Shown piece by piece: positions 1 to 18,929 of a stretch of 23,672 bases of DNA. This DNA comes from a virus. Taxonomy: Duplodnaviria; Heunggongvirae; Uroviricota; Caudoviricetes. How positions within the stretch are numbered: the stretch's first letter is position 1; every line of letters begins with the position of its first letter. Under the pieces are notes generated by a model. That model was not told where the DNA came from. It searched no databases and worked only from the letters and a program-made list of their open reading frames with translations. Position numbers and translations under genes: made by a program. The stretch lies in the IMG/VR virus record IMGVR_UViG_2534681899_000008. The stretch is one strand, 5' to 3'.

Positions 1-1053
1 TTACGGGGTAATGCCAACCGCTGTCGCCACTTTGTCGCCACTTGGCAGCGTTGCCAGAGGATTGAAACGGAGCGCCGTTTCCAGATGATCCGGTGCCAGA
101 TGTGCGTAACGCATAGTCATTTTTATATCGTGGTGTCCGAGAATTTTTTGTAAGGCCAGAATGTTTCCACCCGACATCATGAAGTGCGCCGCAAACGTAT
201 GGCGCAGAACGTGTGTGAGTTGACCGCGAGGGAGCACGATAGACGTTTTTTCCATCACGGATAAAAATTGAAAATAGCAGTCTGTGAAGAAATTGAACCC
301 ATCAAGCGCCATGATCTCTTCGTAAAGCTCTTTACTGATAGGGATGCTTCTGTTTTTCTTCCCCTTCGTTCTTACAAAGGTAATTCGGTATTTGGTCACC
401 TGTGAACGAGTAAGATTTACGGCTTCTCGCCAGCGTGCGCCTGTGCTTAAGCATATCTTAACTACCAGTGCCAGAATTGGGTCCTGACGTTTGCAATCAG
501 CCAGTAATTCAACAATCTGCTCATGGGTAAGCCATGCCATCTCTTTTTCTGCGATGGTGAATTTTCGCATGTTCTCCAGTGGGTTCGGATACGACCATTC
601 GCCCAGGCGGGATAGTTCGCTAAAAACACTACTTAGATAGCTTTGCTCCAGGTTAATGGTGACCGGGCTTGCTCCTTTCTTCCATTTCTCGCTGAAGTAG
701 ATCTCACCTGTCAGGCGTTTATCTCGATAGTGGGCAAACATTTTAGAGGTTAGATCAGTTGCAAGGGGATTGCCCAGAGCGTCAACCATCAGCAGCAATT
801 TGTCATAGACATGCTGCCCAGCAGTCAGTGATTTACCATGTAGTTTGAACCATAGCTCAACCACGTCTTTCAGTGTTCGACGATCCACTGATTCACCTAG
901 CCAGGGCTTTGCTTCGGTTTCTTCCATCGTGTGACGCTCAAAAGCCAGTGCTTCGCCTTTGGTGGCGAATTGTTTACGCACACGACGCCCACTACGTCCG
1001 GCGGGGTAACATTCGCAAAGCCATTTTCCTGTGGTGAGTTTTCGTACAGCCAT
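1..1053 (-). CDS. int: Tyrosine integrase, P2/186 family
   Basis: Translation from MAVRKLTTGKW contains LSTGARW, HVLRHTFAAHFM (H-x-x-R box) and MRYAHLAP (catalytic Tyr box), closely resembling P2 Int as I recall it. ATG at 1053 is preceded by GGAGGG; stop codon occupies window positions 1-3. The ORF track's longer start at 1131 is rejected. Confidence 0.85.
   Translation of the reverse strand: MAVRKLTTGKWLCECYPAGRSGRRVRKQFATKGEALAFERHTMEETEAKPWLGESVDRRTLKDVVELWFKLHGKSLTAGQHVYDKLLLMVDALGNPLATDLTSKMFAHYRDKRLTGEIYFSEKWKKGASPVTINLEQSYLSSVFSELSRLGEWSYPNPLENMRKFTIAEKEMAWLTHEQIVELLADCKRQDPILALVVKICLSTGARWREAVNLTRSQVTKYRITFVRTKGKKNRSIPISKELYEEIMALDGFNFFTDCYFQFLSVMEKTSIVLPRGQLTHVLRHTFAAHFMMSGGNILALQKILGHHDIKMTMRYAHLAPDHLETALRFNPLATLPSGDKVATAVGITP
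19..40. repeat. Left copy of a candidate att core (imperfect direct repeat with 20818-20839)
   Basis: cgctgtcgccactttgtcgcca (19-40) versus cgctgccgccattttgtcgcca (20818-20839): 20 of 22 identical, direct orientation, one copy in the int 3' end and one immediately after the ogr stop codon. Confidence 0.4.
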
Positions 1054-1241
1054 AAAAAATGCCCTCCAATAGAGAGCATTTTTACTGTATGTATAACCAG
1101 TGTCAATGTATGAAATCCTGCGACCATACATCTCACTGAAGCCATAATGAAGTAGGCTATTCTTTTTGCTATGTGATCATGTAACTTTTGCGGTTAACCT
1201 GTGGCTCATTTTTATTTTAGGCGCAGATATAAAAGCAAAAG

Positions 1242-1433
1242 TTATCGTGAGTTTTTAGTACAGATTTTTTTGGATTTACTAATAGTTCCATCATTGCAAA
1301 CGAATTTGCCATCAGAGGTACAGTGAGAAACACCTCCCTTTTTCCCTGAGCAGGGATAATTTCTAGCATAGGTAGCTAGTGGGTTTAATAACAAAGAACA
1401 TGACAAAACCACAAAAAATACCTTACCAAGCAT
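1242..1433 (-). CDS. Small secreted Cys-rich protein (63 aa), candidate lysogenic-conversion moron
   Basis: ATG at 1433 preceded by GGGAGG at 4-5 nt spacing, 16 nt downstream of the cI stop. N-terminus [23 protein letters not shown] looks like a Sec signal peptide with an A-x-A site; mature part has 4 Cys. AT-rich relative to flanking phage genes. Confidence 0.5.
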
Positions 1434-1448
1434 AATTTCCTCCCGGTA

Positions 1449-2024
1449 CTATTTAACATACTTGACTGTTAAACTTATAATTTTACCAATTATTTCAATG
1501 TCTTCTATCTTACATTCGAAGGCTCTGTTTCCACCCTCGACGAAGATTCTTCCACCGGGTAAACGAGTAATGTCACGGATCGTTATTTCGCCATCAATAC
1601 TTATTACCCATTTACCATCACGTATATCATCAAATTCCTTATCACAAATAAATTCAGAATTATTATCTGTGATTACAAAAAGATTCTTGAATGCCGACGG
1701 TAGAAATTCTCTATCGAAAATATAAAAACCGTCTTCACACAAGGCCCCATCAGATAATACATATTTAGCAACTTCCATAGTATTTGTATTACCTGAAGTT
1801 TGCTTTGAACCATGCCCGGTTGTGAGCCAATTAAGCGAGGTGCCTGTTTCAAGGGCGCACTGGATTACCCATTCTGCTGGGAATGAGTCACGCATGTAGC
1901 GTGTGGCGAGTGTACTTTTAGAGATTCCTAAATGATCGCACAACGCCTGTCGAGTCTTGAATCCATAAGCTTCTACCATGCGCTCTATGGCGCCTCGTCC
2001 GCCTTTCTCCAAATTCATGGTCAC
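1449..2024 (-). CDS. cI: CI-type immunity repressor (phage 186 CI-like)
   Basis: 191-aa ORF transcribed with int, divergent from apl and cII; N-terminal HTH-like segment (QALCDHLGISKSTLATRYMRD). Position and size match 186 CI. Start could be ATG 2024 or 2018. Confidence 0.7.
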   Translation of the reverse strand: MTMNLEKGGRGAIERMVEAYGFKTRQALCDHLGISKSTLATRYMRDSFPAEWVIQCALETGTSLNWLTTGHGSKQTSGNTNTMEVAKYVLSDGALCEDGFYIFDREFLPSAFKNLFVITDNNSEFICDKEFDDIRDGKWVISIDGEITIRDITRLPGGRIFVEGGNRAFECKIEDIEIIGKIISLTVKYVK

Positions 2025-2042
2025 TCCAAGTGAACTTTTATC

Positions 2043-2071
2043 TTGACGATTTCACTGTGCGATCGTATGTT
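2043..2071 (+). promoter_or_regulatory. Candidate rightward early (lytic) promoter in the cI-apl switch region
   Basis: TTGACG (2043-2048), 17-nt spacer, TATGTT (2066-2071), about 70 nt upstream of the apl ATG, in the divergent cI/apl intergenic region. Confidence 0.3.
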
Positions 2072-2143
2072 TATGGTGTTCACAAAATACAAACGATCCG
2101 TATTCGTCCTGATTAATCATCATTAAACGAGGAATGTTGCATC

Positions 2144-2365
2144 ATGAGACCTAACATTTCAATCACTCTTACCACGCCTCATGTGACTATTGAACGCTAT
2201 AGCGAGCTGACAGGGCTATCCATCGATACCATCAATGACATGTTGGCTGATGGACGCCTTATCCGTCACCGTCTGCGCAAAGATAAAAAACGCGAAAAAG
2301 TGATGATCAACATAGCAGCAATGACCGTTGATGCGCTTTCAGAATGCAATCTAAACCTTAATTAG
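2144..2365 (+). CDS. apl: Apl/Cox-like excisionase and transcriptional regulator
   Basis: 73-aa basic protein as first gene of the rightward operon opposite cI, the position of apl in 186 and cox in P2. Confidence 0.6.
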
Positions 2366-2397
2366 TTCGATTCTGAAATACATCAGAGGCATTGACC

Positions 2398-2907
2398 ATG
2401 TTTGATTACCAAGTTTCCAAACATCCACATTTTGATGAAGCCTGTCGTGCATTTGCACTGCGCCACAATCTGGTGCAACTGGCAGAACGTGCAGGCATGA
2501 ATGTGCAGATTCTGCGGAACAAGCTGAACCCAGCTCAGCCTCATTTATTAACCGCACCAGAAATCTGGCTGCTTACCGATCTGACTGAAGATTCAACGCT
2601 GGTAGATGGTTTTCTGGCACAGATTCATTGTCTGCCATGTGTACCGATTAATGAGGTGGCAAAAGAGAAACTGCCACATTACGTCATGAGTGCAACCGCA
2701 GAGATCGGGCGTGTTGCTGCAGGTGCGGTGTCTGGCGATGTAAAAACCTGTGCCGGTCGTCGTGATGCTATCAGCAGCATTAACTCTGTAACACGACTGA
2801 TGGCGCTGGCGGCTGTTTCATTGCAGGCCCGTTTACAGGCTAATCCTGCGATGGCGAGTGCAGTTGATACCGTGACTGGCCTCGGTGCTTCATTTGGTTT
2901 GCTGTGA
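2398..2907 (+). CDS. cII: CII-like lysogeny establishment regulator (186 CII family)
   Basis: 169 aa from [20 protein letters not shown]; I recall 186 CII as nearly identical in length and N-terminal sequence. AGAGG lies 8 nt upstream of ATG 2398. Confidence 0.7.
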
Positions 2908-2914
2908 GGTGCTT

Positions 2915-3115
2915 ATGCTGACGAAAGAACCATCATTTGCATCGCTGCTGGTTAAACAAAGCCCGGCAATGCATTACGGTCACGGCTGGATCATGGGTGA
3001 GGATGGTAAACGCTGGCATCCGTGCCGTTCACAAGATGAATTGCTGGCAGAACTATCTACGAAAAAACGGGGGAACAAATGGCTATTGAAGGCGCTGCGG
3101 CGACTGTTCCATTAA
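2915..3115 (+). CDS. Small early protein (66 aa), possibly Fil-like by position
   Basis: ATG at 2915 preceded by GAGGTG; position immediately after cII matches fil in 186. Sequence not recognised with certainty. Confidence 0.4.
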   Translation: MLTKEPSFASLLVKQSPAMHYGHGWIMGEDGKRWHPCRSQDELLAELSTKKRGNKWLLKALRRLFH

Positions 3116-3420
3116 GCCCCGGTGAACGCCTGAATGGACTTAATCACATAGCGGAATTAAGGGCGAAAGTTTTTGGTTTGAATATTGAGTCAGAGCTTGA
3201 GCGGTTTATTAAAGATATGCGTGATCCACGGGATATCAATAATGAACAAAATAAACGGGCACTGGCTGCCATATTCTTTATGGCAAAAATTCCAGCTGAA
3301 CGTCATAGCATCAGCATTAATGAGCTGACCACTGACGAAAAGCGGGAGTTGATTAAAGCAATGAATCATTTTCGTGCAGTGGTGAGCTTATTTCCCAGAC
3401 GGCTAACCATGCCGAATTAA
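3079..3420 (+). CDS. Hypothetical phage early protein (113 aa)
   Basis: ATG at 3079 preceded by GGGGGAA; overlaps the 3' end of the previous ORF in another frame; no recognisable motif. Confidence 0.5.
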   Translation: MAIEGAAATVPLSPGERLNGLNHIAELRAKVFGLNIESELERFIKDMRDPRDINNEQNKRALAAIFFMAKIPAERHSISINELTTDEKRELIKAMNHFRAVVSLFPRRLTMPN

Positions 3421-8180: not shown

Positions 8181-8792
8181 ATGGATTTAGTCTTTAAAGT
8201 TCTGGCTTCGTTGGGTGGGGTGTCTTTTGTTGCATCTGGCATATTTGTTTGGATCGGGAAAGTTTATTTAGAAAGATATAAGTCGCGGCTAAACAAAGAT
8301 ATTGCTGAATTTCAATCACAACTGAGTGCAACTAATGAAAGAATAAAGGCTAAGTTAGACAATTCTGTTTATGTAACGAAAGCGTATTTTGATAAGGAGT
8401 TATCAGCATATAGTCTCATTTGGAATTCGATGTTTGAAACCAGAGAAAGCGTGCTTAAGCTGAGGCCTGCGCTGGATCATGTTGACCCCAACGAACCATT
8501 TGAAGAGAGAAAATTTAGAAGGTTGAAAGTTTTTTTTGATGCATTTAACACTTTTGTTACAAGTGTTGAATCTAACAAACCGTTCATCTCACCAGAGGTT
8601 TATATAATCTTGGACCGTTTCCGGAAGGAATGCCTTTCAGAGTCAATATCGTTTAAGCATAGCGATCCAGAATTTGACGGGCAAAATTATTGGAAAGAGG
8701 CGGAGTTGAACTGTACAACCATCACCAAGCTTTTTGATGAGACGTGTGATGCAATTCGAGACAGGATGCACACATTAACTGTGGTTACGTAG
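8181..8792 (+). CDS. Membrane-anchored protein of unknown function (203 aa), cargo gene
   Basis: ATG preceded by GGTGGGGG; N-terminal hydrophobic helix LVFKVLASLGGVSFVASGIFVWIG then a charged soluble domain; AT-rich; located between the tum/dinI operon and the cos-like site, where P2 carries tin and old. Confidence 0.55.
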   Translation: MDLVFKVLASLGGVSFVASGIFVWIGKVYLERYKSRLNKDIAEFQSQLSATNERIKAKLDNSVYVTKAYFDKELSAYSLIWNSMFETRESVLKLRPALDHVDPNEPFEERKFRRLKVFFDAFNTFVTSVESNKPFISPEVYIILDRFRKECLSESISFKHSDPEFDGQNYWKEAELNCTTITKLFDETCDAIRDRMHTLTVVT

Positions 8793-8998: not shown

Positions 8999-9031
8999 GT
9001 ATGGCACATAGCAAATGACAAGGTGATTATT

Positions 9032-10771
9032 ATGCATGCGATCTTGAAACAATACGTCGAAGATCTTTCTAACCAATTTGCGATAGAAGAAGATGAATCG
9101 AAACTCTTCGAGTATTTTTGTAATTATGTTATTGCTTCTAAAAAGTATTTAGGACGATTTAGTCCTATCGATATCACTACTCAAGAGGATGATGCCTCAT
9201 TAGACGGAATTATCTTTCTTATTGATGGTGAATTAATAACTACTGTTGATGATGCTGAGGCGATATTTAAAACCCATAAAACATCATTGCCAGTGGAGTT
9301 AATACTTACTCAGATTAAATCTGGTGAGGCTTTTGTTAAATCAGATATTGCAAATTTCAAGATTGGCTTGGATGATTTTTTAAGTCTTAAACCGAAATTA
9401 CCAAATGGTATCTATAACACTCAAGCTATTGAAATATTGAAAGTAATATTTGCAAATGTAAAAAAAATTAAAAACAAAAAACCATCGCTTACAGTTCATT
9501 ATTGCACTAGTGGTACTTATGTTGAAGAGAGAGAAATTAAAGCTACATTTGATATAATTAAAAAATCATGCTTCGATACTGACTTTTTTGATTCTGTTGA
9601 CGTGAGACCTCTCGGGCGTAAAGAACTAATGGATATGTGGATATCCATAACCGAAAAAAATGAGGCTGAGTTACAGTTGATTGATTACATAGGTATCGAG
9701 GCTATGCCAGGTATCCCTCAATCATATATTGCAATTGTAAAAGCAAAGCATTTTATTGAGAAGCTTGCAAAAGATAGTGATGGAAAAATAAAAGAGTCAA
9801 TTTTTGAAGAAAATATACGTGCGTTCTTAGGAAGTGATAATAATGTTAATAATAAAATCTCCTCAACTTTAGAAGATAAAAAAATAAAAGCAAAACAATT
9901 TCCAGTGTTGAATAATGGAGTGACTATAATTACTCCAGAGTTATCTATACAACCAAACACAAAAGTTATAAATCTTACAAACTATCAAATTATTAATGGT
10001 TGTCAAACAACTAATACACTCTTCCATCATTACGATAATTTAAATGATGATGTTGAGATTGTTGTCAAATTTATAGAGTCTCAAGATGCTGATGTTGCAA
10101 GTAGCATAATTGAAGCAACAAATAGTCAATCAGCAATTGAGGGAGCAGCGTTTTTTGCATTGCGTGAAAAAGCTAAAATGGTGCAGAAATATTTCGATCT
10201 ACAGAGGAAAGACCCAAAACTGGAAAGTATATATTTTGAGCGGCGTGAAAATGAATATCGGCCATATGATATACAATCTACACGTATATATGATATTAAA
10301 GAACTGGCTCGTTGCTTCATATCTGTATTTAAGCGGAACCCGCACAATGCTGCTAGATATGTTAAAAAAGTACTTAGCGAAAGCGATAATATAATATTTG
10401 GTGAGGCCGATAATGAATGCGCATATTATACTGCGGCGTATATATGTTATAAGTATAATACTATGATTAACGGGCGAAGAGAAAATGCACAAAAGTATAA
10501 TAAATATAGATGGCATATTGCAATGTTATATCCTTGGGTCGTAAATAAAAAGGTTGAGAAAGTTGAATTAAATTCAAAGAAAATGAGTGCCTATTGTGAG
10601 CGTATTCTTAAAACATTTTATAACGACAACTATATTAAGCATTTTTCAAAATGCCATGAGATAATTGATGCTCTTGCTTTAGATAATGAGAATGGTGTTA
10701 CAGATGATCAACTAAAACGTGCACGATATACTACTAGTTTAATTGAAAAAGCTACTGAGATTTTGAAATAA
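9032..10771 (+). CDS. Large AT-rich cargo protein (579 aa), candidate anti-phage / abortive-infection protein (possibly AIPR-like); function unassigned
   Basis: Uninterrupted 1.74-kb ORF at roughly 30% GC by eye (backbone about 50%); AAGGTGA SD 5 nt upstream of ATG 9032; own promoter and terminator. No P-loop (so not OLD-like) and no YxDD (so not an Abi-P2-type reverse transcriptase). Motifs NNGVTIITPE and INGCQTT noted. Confidence 0.7.
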   Translation: MHAILKQYVEDLSNQFAIEEDESKLFEYFCNYVIASKKYLGRFSPIDITTQEDDASLDGIIFLIDGELITTVDDAEAIFKTHKTSLPVELILTQIKSGEAFVKSDIANFKIGLDDFLSLKPKLPNGIYNTQAIEILKVIFANVKKIKNKKPSLTVHYCTSGTYVEEREIKATFDIIKKSCFDTDFFDSVDVRPLGRKELMDMWISITEKNEAELQLIDYIGIEAMPGIPQSYIAIVKAKHFIEKLAKDSDGKIKESIFEENIRAFLGSDNNVNNKISSTLEDKKIKAKQFPVLNNGVTIITPELSIQPNTKVINLTNYQIINGCQTTNTLFHHYDNLNDDVEIVVKFIESQDADVASSIIEATNSQSAIEGAAFFALREKAKMVQKYFDLQRKDPKLESIYFERRENEYRPYDIQSTRIYDIKELARCFISVFKRNPHNAARYVKKVLSESDNIIFGEADNECAYYTAAYICYKYNTMINGRRENAQKYNKYRWHIAMLYPWVVNKKVEKVELNSKKMSAYCERILKTFYNDNYIKHFSKCHEIIDALALDNENGVTDDQLKRARYTTSLIEKATEILK

Positions 10772-16303: not shown

Positions 16304-16398
16304 CAGAACGTGCCCCCGCGCACGGGCGGCACGGGGTGGCGAAAGGCACTGCCACATCAAAACCCCGTCCACCGCCCTCTATTTCAGGAGAAAGCAGC

Positions 16399-16860
16399 AT
16401 GAAGTTTGTTGCGCCAGAACAGGCACCGGAACAGGCGGAAATCATCAGAAATACGCCGTTCTGGCCTGATGTGGACCTGTCGGAGTTTCGCAGTGTGATG
16501 CGCACTGACGGCACGGTGACGCAGCCGCGTTTAAAGCAGGTTGCGCTGTCGGCAATTTCGGAGGTCAACGCAGAGCTGTATGAGTTTCGCAGACGCCAGC
16601 AGATGCTGGGATATGCCTCGCTGGCAGAGGTTCCGGCGGAACAGCTGGACGGGAAAAGCGAGCGAATTCAGCACTATTTCAACGCGGTTTACTGCTGGGC
16701 TCGCGCCATGCTCAACGAACGTTACCAGGACTATGACGCCACGGCATCCGGTGTGAAGCGGGGCGAGGAACTGGCAGAAGCCAGCGGTGATTTGTGGCGT
16801 GACGCCCGCTGGGCCATCTGCCGGGTACCCGCAATATTGAACAGCTCGGCGATGCGCTGA
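16399..16860 (+). CDS. L: Head completion/stabilisation protein, P2 gpL family, possibly C-terminally altered
   Basis: ATG at 16399 preceded by AGGAGA; 153 aa versus 169 aa for P2 gpL; the next gene's frame opens inside its 3' end. Confidence 0.6.
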   Translation: MKFVAPEQAPEQAEIIRNTPFWPDVDLSEFRSVMRTDGTVTQPRLKQVALSAISEVNAELYEFRRRQQMLGYASLAEVPAEQLDGKSERIQHYFNAVYCWARAMLNERYQDYDATASGVKRGEELAEASGDLWRDARWAICRVPAILNSSAMR

Positions 16861-16880: not shown

Positions 16881-18929
16881 ATGTCGAAAGGGGCGGACAT
16901 CATTGATGTGATGCAGCGTCTGGGCGGTGTGGCTGACCGTCTGGATTATCGTAAAGCGGCGGCGCTGGGTTCCACCTTCCTGACACTGGGCGCTGCGCCG
17001 GAGGTTGCAGCCAGTGCAGCAAACGCGATGGTGCGTGAATTGTCTATTGCCACCATGCAGAGCAAGAGTTTTTTTGAAGGGATGAATCTGCTGAAACTCA
17101 ATCCTGAAGTGATTGAAAAACAGATGACGAAGGATGCGATGGGAACCATCCAGCGCGTGCTGGAGAAGGTGAATGCATTGCCGCAGGATAAGCGCCTGTC
17201 TGCTATGACCATGTTGTTTGGTAAAGAGTTTGGCGATGACGCGGCGAAACTGGCAAACAACCTGCCGGAGCTGCAGCGCCAGTTAAAACTAACAGCGGGC
17301 AATGATGCGCTCGGTTCCATGCAGAAAGAATCCGACATCAACAAGGATTCACTTTCTGCGCAGTGGTTGCTGGTCAAAACCGGAGCACAGAACACCTTCA
17401 GCAGCCTGGGCGAAACGCTGCGCCAGCCGCTGATGGATATTCTGTACATGGTGAAAAGCGTCACGGGGGCGTCGCGTCGCTGGGTGGAAGCTAACCCGGA
17501 ACTGACGGGCACACTGATGAAAGTAGCCGCTGTTGTGGCTGCTGTTACCGTGGGCCTCGGCACCCTAGCTGTGGTGTTGGCTGCTGTGCTGGGGCCGCTG
17601 GCAGTCATCCGTCTGGGATTCTCTGTACTGGGTATCAAAACGTTACCTTCCGTTGCGGCAGCAGTAACCCGAACCCGCAACGCGTTGTCCTGGCTGGCTG
17701 GCGCTCCACTGGCACTGCTGCGACGCGGGTTTGCTTCATCGGGCAAGGCCGCAGGTTTACTTACTGCGCCGTTGTCGTCTTTGCGCCGCACGGCATCACT
17801 GACGAGAAATGTCCTGAAAACTGTAGCAGGTGCGCCGGTTGCACTGTTGCGATCTGGATTATCCGGTTTACGTACTGTTGCTGTGATGTTTATGAATCCT
17901 CTGGCGGTACTGCGCGGTGGACTGGCTGCCGCAGGCGCGGTGCTTCGTGTGCTTGCATCCGGTCCGCTGGCGATGCTGCGCGTTGCCCTGTATGCCGTAT
18001 CTGGTCTGTTAGGTGCTCTGCTCAGTCCGATAGGTCTTGTGGTTACTGCACTGGCGGGCGTGGCGCTGGTTGTCTGGAAATACTGGCAACCCATCACCGC
18101 ATTTCTTGGTGGCGTGGTGGAAGGATTCAAAGCGGCGGCAGGTCCCGTCAGTGCAGCATTCGAACCGCTTAAGCCCGTGTTCCAGTGGATTGGCGACAAA
18201 GTACAGGCGCTGTGGGGCTGGTTTACTAATCTGCTGACGCCCGTTAAGTCGACCTCTGCCGAACTGCAGAGTGCAGCGGCAATGGGGCGGAGATTCGGGG
18301 AGGCACTGGCGGAAGGGCTGAATATGGTCATGCATCCGCTGGACTCCCTGAAATCCGGCGTTTCCTGGTTGCTGGAGAAGCTCGGCATTGTCAGTAAAGA
18401 GGCCGCAAAGGCAAAACTGCCGGAAAGCGTGACGCGTCAGCAACCTGCGACGGTGAATGCAGACGGTAAAGTGATGATGCCATCGGGTGGTTTTCCATCA
18501 TGGGGATATGGCTTTGCGGGGATGTATGACAGCGGCGGGTATATCCCGCGCGGGCAGTTTGGCATCGTCGGTGAAAACGGGCCGGAAATTGTTAACGGCC
18601 CGGCAAATGTGACCAGCCGGAGAAATACAGCTGCACTGGCTGCCGTTGTTGCCGGAATGATGGGCGTTGCTGCCGCACCAGCAGAGCTTCCACCGTTGCA
18701 CCCTTTGGCACTTCCCGCGAAAGGTGGAGAAGCAATTGTGAGTCGCGCAGCCACTGTGCCGCCCGTTTACAGGATTGAGGCACCGACGCAGATCATCATC
18801 CAGACGCAGCCAGGACAAAGTGCGCAGGATATTGCGCGGGAGGTGGCCCGCCAGCTTGATGAACGTGAACGCAGGTTGAAGGCAAAAGCCAGGAGTAACT
18901 ACAGCGATCAGGGGGGATACGACGCATGA
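16881..18929 (+). CDS. T: Tail tape measure protein, P2 gpT family, apparently N-terminally truncated
   Basis: 682 aa (P2 gpT 815 aa) with Ala/Leu-rich repeated segments (PLALLRRG, PVALLRSG, PLAVLRGG, PLAMLRVA); stop overlaps the U start. The frame is open from 16803, so the true 5' end is uncertain. Confidence 0.65.
   Translation: MSKGADIIDVMQRLGGVADRLDYRKAAALGSTFLTLGAAPEVAASAANAMVRELSIATMQSKSFFEGMNLLKLNPEVIEKQMTKDAMGTIQRVLEKVNALPQDKRLSAMTMLFGKEFGDDAAKLANNLPELQRQLKLTAGNDALGSMQKESDINKDSLSAQWLLVKTGAQNTFSSLGETLRQPLMDILYMVKSVTGASRRWVEANPELTGTLMKVAAVVAAVTVGLGTLAVVLAAVLGPLAVIRLGFSVLGIKTLPSVAAAVTRTRNALSWLAGAPLALLRRGFASSGKAAGLLTAPLSSLRRTASLTRNVLKTVAGAPVALLRSGLSGLRTVAVMFMNPLAVLRGGLAAAGAVLRVLASGPLAMLRVALYAVSGLLGALLSPIGLVVTALAGVALVVWKYWQPITAFLGGVVEGFKAAAGPVSAAFEPLKPVFQWIGDKVQALWGWFTNLLTPVKSTSAELQSAAAMGRRFGEALAEGLNMVMHPLDSLKSGVSWLLEKLGIVSKEAAKAKLPESVTRQQPATVNADGKVMMPSGGFPSWGYGFAGMYDSGGYIPRGQFGIVGENGPEIVNGPANVTSRRNTAALAAVVAGMMGVAAAPAELPPLHPLALPAKGGEAIVSRAATVPPVYRIEAPTQIIIQTQPGQSAQDIAREVARQLDERERRLKAKARSNYSDQGGYDA

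Follow-up and report, generated by a model that had tools for sequence, protein, structure and literature searches.

What does a prophage gain from a 63-codon reading frame lodged between its immunity repressor and its integrase, and what might the encoded protein do for a lysogen? The frame lies in a 23,672-nt stretch of DNA (IMG/VR record IMGVR_UViG_2534681899_000008; the whole stretch is called the window here), an Escherichia coli prophage whose integration site is beside rcdA/ybjJ and whose content is P2-like phage genes plus host genes, and nothing else. The original prediction, made from the DNA letters, saw in this frame a small exported, cysteine-rich protein expressed with the repressor, in the layout of a lysogenic-conversion or superinfection-exclusion moron. 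Comparative analysis of the locus makes it very probable that the frame is a real YdcA-family periplasmic accessory gene, and leads to a tentative proposal for its role at the cell envelope.

The predicted 63-codon ORF is present on the minus strand, with an ATG start, a TAA stop and, 5 nt upstream of the ATG, the GGGAGG ribosome-binding site that had been described (Table 1). It lies upstream of int, as claimed, with the int start 188 nt downstream of its stop codon; the distance from the cI stop codon (TAG, 1451..1449) had been put at 16 nt and measures 15 nt. The window opens at the stop codon of int, and beyond this gene come the 188-nt spacer, ydcA, the 15-nt gap and cI, and the divergent set beyond cI contains a fil gene after the apl/cox-like and cII genes. 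The ORF had also been called AT-rich, and its GC content is indeed 0.359 compared to 0.498 across the window, but the low-GC tract extends from ~1100 to 1800 and takes in the 3' half of cI, so this property is not specific to the ORF. No Rfam families were found in the region from 900 to 2300.

Table 1. Features of the lysogeny region and its surroundings, in window coordinates
Feature	Coordinates	Strand	Evidence
int, P2-family tyrosine integrase	1..1053	-	Pfam Int_N and Phage_integrase; RefSeq annotation
Structured 188-nt spacer, ydcA to int	1054..1241	-	RNA fold MFE -53.9 kcal/mol, z = -4.5 against shuffles
Terminator-like hairpin, 13-bp stem, 3-nt loop, U run	1055..1083	-	MFE -17.5 kcal/mol, z = -5.65
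ydcA-family gene, 63-aa precursor plus stop	1242..1433	-	ORF list, translation, NF007463, PHROG 6000, RefSeq
Mature YdcA domain, residues 24-63, basic, four conserved Cys	1245..1364	-	Alignments, codon comparison, AlphaFold2
Predicted Sec signal peptide, residues 1-23, cut after T-Y-A	1365..1433	-	Hydropathy, -3/-1 rule, homologue pattern
Shine-Dalgarno sequence GGGAGG	1439..1444	-	5 nt upstream of ydcA ATG, read from sequence
cI immunity repressor, 186/P2 type	1449..2018	-	Pfam Phage_CI_repr (2.8e-33) and Phage_CI_C (2.7e-27); RefSeq
Apl/Cox-like excisionase-repressor, first gene of the divergent lytic operon	2144..2365	+	PHROG 575, E 6e-31
cII-like activator	2392..2907	+	Pfam Phage_CP76, E 4e-42

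The protein had been set down as not recognized, but profile searches and RefSeq place it in the curated YdcA family. It scores 114.6 bits against NF007463 (NCBIfam, PRK10040.1-2; cut-off 93) over profile positions 1-58 of 58 and matches PHROG 6000 (E 3e-34); the Pfam family PF27300 ('YdcA') is precomputed for an identical database protein, and the identical RefSeq sequence is named 'YdcA family protein' (WP_001513672.1). With a single domain of ~35 aa that contains four cysteines and the near-invariant motif PCSGxKGG(V/I)SHC..GxF(V/I)CxDG(S/T)xSxSKxxC, the protein is a member of this family. The four cysteines that had been counted are correct for the mature part (C28, C38, C46 and C58), where alignments of 43 and 149 family members show these four, like the residues of the motif, to be either invariant or conserved at 90% or more. 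The precursor has five in total, the additional one (C12) being a leader cysteine that is not conserved and is missing from most homologues, whose leaders end in xxA.

The family is broad: when 1.84 billion representative proteins were searched with a profile, 442 clusters at 50% identity were recovered, and a pattern scan found relatives in 225 species-level genomes of alpha-, beta- and gammaproteobacteria. Among 5,426 complete E. coli genomes, int is present in 1,137, the 1.1-kb int-ydcA-cI region in 728 and the ydcA allele group in 648. Strain HS carries the gene at 100% identity, and in a BL21-derived T7 Express strain the region is 96.4% identical. A full-text literature search on the family names found essentially nothing, and the genes called 'ydcA' in F-type plasmids and the gonococcal genetic island are unrelated (the ydcA of pS88, for example, is a methylase).

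Comparison of alleles provides evidence that the gene is maintained. In the mature domain there are 9 synonymous and 0 non-synonymous differences from the 93%-identical allele L011, and in the comparison with L094, a more remote allele located behind a cI of 72% identity, synonymous sites are saturated (~20 of 23) and there are only 3 non-synonymous changes; the L094 signal peptide is almost wholly replaced relative to that in the window. The mature-domain dN/dS is near zero in these pairwise comparisons, which show the domain, as judged from its substitutions, to be under strong purifying selection. Taken with a family score above the cut-off, these counts indicate that the ORF is more than a chance occurrence, and it was intact in 80 of the 80 IMG/VR loci retrieved.

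The signal-peptide-like N-terminus that had been proposed is compatible, as a prediction, with hydropathy, the -3/-1 rule and the pattern across 43 homologues. The leader contains Lys4, a 12-residue hydrophobic core (Kyte-Doolittle 9-residue means of 2.2-2.7), Pro18 and the sequence T-Y-A at positions -3 to -1 before Arg24. In the 43 homologues the leader varies in sequence but is always hydrophobic, and Ala23, just before the conserved domain, is kept in at least 90% of them. In addition, the cryo-EM model of Dis2, a Legionella relative considered below, begins just past the position that corresponds in the alignment to the proposed cut. These features suggest that the prophage protein is exported by Sec to the periplasm, where its cysteines presumably form disulfides. 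The mature part is small and basic (pI 9.5 and 4.1 kDa, computed on residues 25-63), and AlphaFold2 predicts a short helix and a beta-hairpin at a pLDDT of ~90 over residues 31-50.

The surroundings of the gene suggest how it may be expressed. Neither a promoter nor a terminator was found by scanning the cI-ydcA gap, and a simple scan of the minus strand of the ydcA-int spacer detected no terminator. The terminator-like hairpin in this spacer contains the int Shine-Dalgarno sequence (GGAGGG, 1067..1062) and falls within an int module (1..1113) that Klebsiella phages share at 97-98%. This structure may both have a terminator-like role and hide the signal for int translation. Because the gap is 15 nt, a terminator is absent and the layout is that of the 186 pL/pE operon, ydcA is probably co-transcribed with cI in the lysogen. 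The folding of the spacer and the U-run hairpin that buries the int Shine-Dalgarno sequence further suggest that a lysogen would make ydcA with cI while int is insulated. The gene is a rider on the cI operon, not an autonomous cassette: no promoter and terminator of its own were detected, the sole terminator-like hairpin being that of the int module, and the low-GC tract takes in the adjoining part of cI as well.

The cI-int interval in which ydcA resides varies among related phages. In phage 186 and SopEΦ, cI abuts int and the slot is empty; in vB_EcoM-813R9 and KP12, which have an int that is >99% identical, it contains a 558-aa PD-Lambda-1 protein (PADLOC, E 3e-120), and in 4LV2017, whose int is also >99% identical, a 349-aa protein with no family assigned. 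In loci L012 and L094-L098, ydcA and a KAP NTPase (PDC-S20; PADLOC, E 2e-171) are found together in the slot, and L190, with a cI that is 88.6% identical in nucleotide sequence, has a CI-like protein and a KAP NTPase without ydcA; the int of these loci, too, is >99% identical. Homology among the phages with the same int restarts at ~1113, just upstream of int. Comparison of these genomes shows the interval to be, in terms of gene content, a swappable cargo slot in which ydcA behaves as accessory cargo. The proposed moron layout is thus upheld in the presence or absence of the gene between conserved flanks (186, SopEΦ, the PD-Lambda-1 and KAP phages, L190), but not as regards its own promoter, terminator or composition. 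Previous work counts the cI-int interval of K139-like phages among defence hotspots (PMC9122126), and the int-primase region of P2 was described as a minor hotspot with 8% of P2 defence systems (PMC13586616). As an already catalogued family in a slot already recognized as variable in P2-family phages, the prophage copy is an ordinary annotated member of a curated family with no assigned function, and by itself changes little.

The proposed check on whether related P2/186-like prophages carry a gene at this position gave a positive answer, as ydcA is found there in E. coli alleles, in Yersinia prophages and in HP2 and S2, the latter two having an unannotated 60-aa homologue that begins at the cI stop codon. 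The cI-ydcA-int order is retained in Yersinia prophages (cI 38-39%, int 48% and YdcA 70% identical) and in Haemophilus phage HP2 (cI 32% and YdcA 62% identical) even though the flanking genes have diverged far more than YdcA. The extension of this arrangement to Yersinia prophages and to an unannotated HP2 ORF is a modestly useful outcome of the analysis.

Members of the YdcA family are also found outside such prophages. The E. coli chromosome encodes a YdcA (b1419; PF27300, NF007462/NF007463, PRK10040) that likewise consists of a leader and a single four-Cys domain of ~35 aa, is 57% identical to the prophage protein over the conserved domain, and has in common with it the motif PCSGxKGG(V/I)SHC...GKFVCNDG(T/S)xSxSKKxC. 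The two differ in location (the prophage lysogeny operon as opposed to a site between cybB and hokB), in subgroup (the prophage protein belongs to NF007463 and not to NF007462, against which it scores 68.5 bits for a cut-off of 118), in the C-terminal KNSR tail of the prophage protein and in their signal peptides. A hom-ydcA context was also seen in metagenomic contigs. On mobile elements, ydcA is located among the tail genes, outside the lysogeny module, of Moraxella and Acinetobacter siphophages, beside traD and mobA on a 3.9-kb MOBQ plasmid, and, as a YdcA-domain gene, in a type VI secretion cluster on a plasmid, where tssE and a gene for a GIY-YIG nuclease flank it; one family cluster has the UniRef name 'Conjugal transfer protein'. 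Among 149 family representatives, 5 have the architecture signal peptide-YdcA-linker-nuclease (three with Endonuclease_NS, one with SNase and one with PLD), one is a VasL fusion, and several are tandem repeats. Recurrence of the domain on secreted nucleases of three folds, on VasL and in a type VI secretion setting is in keeping with a module for targeting or binding in the periplasm, and the N-terminal position of the domain in these enzymes, together with the secretion contexts, is of modest use as a first testable hint of such a function. A census of the nearest ORF on each side in 77 genomes found no constant neighbour (the commonest were DUF2946, six times, integrase, four times, and CI, three times), so no function can be inferred from operon context.

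Sequence and fold searches of the PDB identified one relative, Legionella pneumophila Dis2 (Lpg0823; chain AN of 7MUC/7MUD), with a phmmer E of 3e-5, a profile E of 1e-4, a Foldseek probability of 0.98 and 39% identity over 38 columns. Dis2 has two similar lobes pinned by five disulfides, adjoins the outer membrane, where it contacts DotK, DotC and DotD, and its loss has only subtle effects in Legionella (PMC8486379, PMC12716638). From the above matches, Dis2 appears to be a tandem YdcA domain, which is a modestly useful result. This link appears not to have been noted in these papers, since they describe Dis2 as Legionella- or Legionellales-specific and without structural homologues (PMC8486379, PMC12716638). 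The two proteins have a homologous domain, and both are exported, disulfide-rich and periplasmic (by prediction for the prophage protein), but Dis2 has tandem lobes and is a stoichiometric subunit, in 13 copies, of the type IVB secretion outer-membrane cap, whereas the prophage protein is a single 63-aa domain and the window contains no type IVB secretion genes, so it does not belong with cap subunits of the Dis2 type. A fold search of BFVD returned nothing meaningful. The idea that YdcA might be linked to DUF3761 by circular permutation was discarded, as Pfam scans of artificial tandem or permuted YdcA sequences and of natural tandems gave no hit, and matches to plant Pin-II proteinase inhibitors (E 0.2-1) and to a GULLO2-like C-terminal domain (E 0.076, below cut-off) were taken as noise from cysteine-rich sequences.

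There are precedents for small exported phage proteins that act in exclusion. The layout in Vibrio phage K139 is cI-orf2-glo-int, and glo is annotated as 'periplasmic protein; involved in phage exclusion'. Nesper and colleagues reportedly described such an exclusion role for Glo in 1999, and our use of it is based on the annotation of the K139 record and on a paper title in a reference list. Glo carries a signal peptide and resides in the periplasm, as is predicted for the prophage YdcA, and its gene likewise lies in the cI-int interval of the lysogenic operon of a P2-family phage; the protein differs in length (137 aa) and composition, and homology between the two was rejected because the hhalign probability is 7% and only the signal peptides align. 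Cor (phi80/HK022), Llp (T5) and Ltp (TP-J34) are other small, exported, phage-made exclusion proteins at the cell envelope. These are lipoproteins, whereas the prophage YdcA is without a proper lipobox: the sequence V-L-S-C12 comes after only 7 hydrophobic residues, Lys4 is within 8 residues, and C12 is not conserved.

One can propose a pathway by which the prophage gene might contribute to exclusion. In this proposal, the cI mRNA of the lysogen would also be the message for ydcA, the strong ribosome-binding site of ydcA itself would direct its translation, the 63-aa precursor would be exported by Sec and cut after Ala23, and the basic 40-residue product would fold in the periplasm into a disulfide-stapled YdcA fold, like that of each Dis2 lobe. 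Mature YdcA would then be a free-standing binder of a polyanion or of a highly conserved component of the envelope, close to the outer membrane or to the peptidoglycan, and the lysogen would benefit from envelope-level protection against incoming foreign DNA or phage, as with K139 Glo. Envelope-level exclusion of incoming DNA or phage by the prophage YdcA is a possibility that we put forward tentatively, and both its ligand and its part in exclusion are speculative.

Several observations favour this exclusion proposal. The slot is polymorphic, and defence genes (PD-Lambda-1, KAP NTPase) and Glo are found in the same interval; the family is present on other mobile elements, including Moraxella and Acinetobacter phages and the 3.9-kb MOBQ plasmid; the mature domain is under purifying selection beside a scrambled signal peptide, and the ORF is intact wherever it was retrieved; gene order has survived the divergence of its flanks in Yersinia and HP2; the homologous Dis2 is disulfide-pinned and lies by the outer membrane; and the domain recurs N-terminally on secreted nucleases and on VasL, and in a type VI secretion cluster. 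The likeness to other cargo of the slot is one of position, in that PD-Lambda-1 and the KAP NTPase PDC-S20 occupy the same interval, from a 186-type cI to the same int, in E. coli and Klebsiella prophages. Those proteins are large and cytoplasmic, of ATPase or nuclease type, and YdcA is a predicted periplasmic peptide of 4 kDa that is absent from PADLOC (0 families of the PADLOC-DB v2 defence models matched at E <= 0.01) and can coexist with the KAP NTPase. That YdcA sits beside this NTPase in some prophages, and does not replace it, means that it may not be defence cargo, and the absence of both a PADLOC match and homology to Glo also counts against an exclusion role. Furthermore, paralogues occur in stable chromosomal contexts (cybB-ydcA-hokB, hom-ydcA), so that a phage-specific role is not established. 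Also unfavourable are that the only hints for the chromosomal gene are linked to stress (an RpoS peak, acid induction and 3-hydroxypropionate sensitivity, see below), that the mature domain evolves very slowly, unlike most phage-targeting exclusion or defence proteins, and that the gene is among tail genes in the Moraxella and Acinetobacter phages. If the exclusion proposal were correct, the prophage would provide a very small, easily studied exclusion factor, as well as a function for a 'y-gene' in most E. coli genomes looked at.

A wider claim, and one we regard as unlikely, is that the YdcA domain is a widespread, hitherto unrecognized periplasmic module by which phages, mobilizable plasmids and type IV and type VI secretion systems govern the passage of DNA or machinery through the envelope, with the stand-alone prophage copy representing a new entry-exclusion class. 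Such a protein would bind either the incoming DNA or a conserved component close to the outer membrane and thereby keep phage or conjugative DNA out, and the claim, if true, would supply a function for E. coli YdcA and Legionella Dis2 as well.

The alternative that survives best is lysogenic conversion, in which the prophage copy would improve envelope or stress fitness in the manner of chromosomal YdcA (acid, organic acids, stationary phase) and have no direct effect on phage, a reading that we consider somewhat doubtful. The 57% identity between the two proteins invites it, and there are data on the chromosomal gene that point to stress: growth of E. coli W is severely impaired at 300 mM 3-hydroxypropionate when ydcA is deleted, and the same study cites acid induction of ydcA via YdcI (PMC7642389), while an RpoS holoenzyme SELEX peak is located in the rydC-ydcA spacer (PMC5493296). 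The chromosomal gene is also up-regulated in a pnp mutant. Conservation of the domain across alpha-, beta- and gammaproteobacteria would fit a conserved host ligand, and ydcA has been kept intact in the defective prophage of the window. However, this chromosomal support is thin and indirect, it is not obvious what a second copy would add in a species that already has ydcA in nearly all its members, and the other cargo of the same slot is anti-phage.

A less probable alternative, which we judge distinctly unlikely, is that YdcA is a periplasmic nucleic-acid binder, its basic Gly/Lys-rich domain sequestering or marking DNA during phage injection, conjugation or transformation and, in fused form, serving as the substrate-binding module of nucleases. 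The fusions to nucleases of three unrelated folds (5 of 149) are consistent with this activity, as are the pI of 9.5 and the conserved lysines, the presence of homologues in phages and plasmids of the naturally competent Haemophilus, Moraxella, Acinetobacter and Neisseria, and the identity of the next gene in HP2, which encodes a secreted OB-fold-like protein (tRNA_anti-like). On the other hand, nuclease fusions are only ~3% of representatives, the only solved case, Dis2, contacts proteins and not DNA, and fold searches gave no known DNA-binding fold.

It is also conceivable, although we think it quite improbable, that YdcA is an accessory or immunity-type partner of envelope machines, which, by attaching like Dis2 to a lipoprotein of the outer membrane or to an OmpA-like protein, would modulate type IV or type VI secretion directed at the lysogen, or block it. 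The tandem YdcA domains of Dis2 in the Dot/Icm outer-membrane cap, the tssE-adjacent gene, the VasL fusion, the traD and mobA neighbours on the MOBQ plasmid and the UniRef name of the 'Conjugal transfer protein' cluster all point in this direction. Against it are the absence of secretion-system genes from the window, the failure of the 77-genome census to reveal a consistent partner and the subtlety of the effects of Dis2 loss.

Two further explanations can be set aside more readily. A cationic, bacteriocin-like antimicrobial peptide secreted by the lysogen would share the small size and disulfide-rich character of YdcA and the presence of the family on phages and small plasmids, but it is highly improbable given that Sec export stops in the Gram-negative periplasm, no immunity or export gene is adjacent, core chromosomal paralogues are without partners, and larger enzymes carry the domain at their N-terminus. 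Finally, the idea that this very short, AT-rich frame packed tightly after cI is a chance ORF, or one whose translation merely couples or spaces cI and int expression, has a negligible likelihood and is effectively refuted by the synonymous bias (9/0 and ~20/3), the NF007463 score, the 442 proteobacterial clusters and the detection of a homologous domain in Legionella by both cryo-EM and mass spectrometry.

The small, predicted exported, cysteine-rich YdcA domain recurs in phages and beyond them. A YdcA-family ORF that carries no annotation is present in Haemophilus phage HP2 (see the table), and the same unannotated ORF is found in S2 (Z71579); the gene that follows it in HP2, orf1(S), encodes a signal peptide and a tRNA_anti-like (OB-fold) domain. 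Published work on Legionella presents the Dot/Icm outer-membrane cap protein Dis2 (Lpg0823; PDB 7MUC/7MUD chain AN) as a Legionella- or Legionellales-specific protein that has no structural homologues. Here Dis2 aligns with the YdcA family, with two YdcA-like lobes arranged in tandem. Secreted nucleases of the SNase, Endonuclease_NS and PLD types carry the domain at their N-terminus, as does a VasL-domain protein (P0120, P0149, P0204, P0218 and P0106), and it is also found as a short protein encoded within a plasmid type VI secretion cluster. In a census of the neighbours of YdcA-family genes (L016-L093), the most common immediate neighbours were DUF2946 proteins, which accounted for 6 of the 149 neighbouring ORFs.

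Features of the window and of retrieved loci
Feature	Sequence	Coordinates	Strand	Remarks
60-aa YdcA-family ORF, unannotated	L001 (Haemophilus phage HP2, NC_003315)	2944-3126		begins at cI stop codon
133-aa YdcA-domain protein	L107	4926-5327		between tssE and GIY-YIG nuclease gene, plasmid type VI secretion cluster
307-aa 'CI-like' protein and 505-aa KAP NTPase, paired	L190 (E. coli AF44)	525-2991		same slot as ydcA
443-aa KAP NTPase (PDC-S20)	L012	1142-2473		same slot, downstream of ydcA
Hairpin	window	1055-1083	minus	-17.5 kcal/mol, z = -5.65; immediately 5' of int ATG
Promoter-like site TTGACA-17-AAAAAT	window	1106-1078	minus	transcript start would lie within hairpin
Sigma-70-like site TTAACA-17-TATAAT	window	1453-1481	+	near-consensus, 11/12 matches
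203-aa ORF, no family match	window	8181-8792	+	gpA-portal hotspot
AbiU/AIPR abortive-infection gene	window	9023-10771	+	PADLOC E 1e-107; gpA-portal hotspot
ORFs at deletion junction	window	16336-16860 and 16881-18929		junction ~16826

The slot between cI and int that holds ydcA carries other cargo in related prophages, and both the CI-like/KAP NTPase pair of E. coli AF44 and the KAP NTPase of L012 are probably defense systems. On the int side of this slot lies a hairpin which looks like an intrinsic terminator and in whose predicted fold the int Shine-Dalgarno sequence is sequestered. Transcripts from the promoter-like site would start within the hairpin and so leave this Shine-Dalgarno sequence unpaired, and the two elements together may constitute a switch that distinguishes read-through from int-specific transcripts. 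Their arrangement is conserved inside the int module that this prophage has in common with Klebsiella phages. The sigma-70-like site lies antisense to cI and is directed into its 3' end; in DNA this AT-rich, the match may have arisen by chance.

The window's prophage is a deletion derivative. At the junction, the head-completion gene L runs straight into a C-terminal piece of the tape-measure gene, this fragment is followed by gpU and then gpD, and the prophage lacks lysis, baseplate, tail-fibre, sheath and tube genes. From ~21053 onward come the host genes ybjL and ybjM. Of 5,426 E. coli genomes, only 3 have the L/tape-measure junction; the single match listed by name is FDN-11, a chicken isolate.
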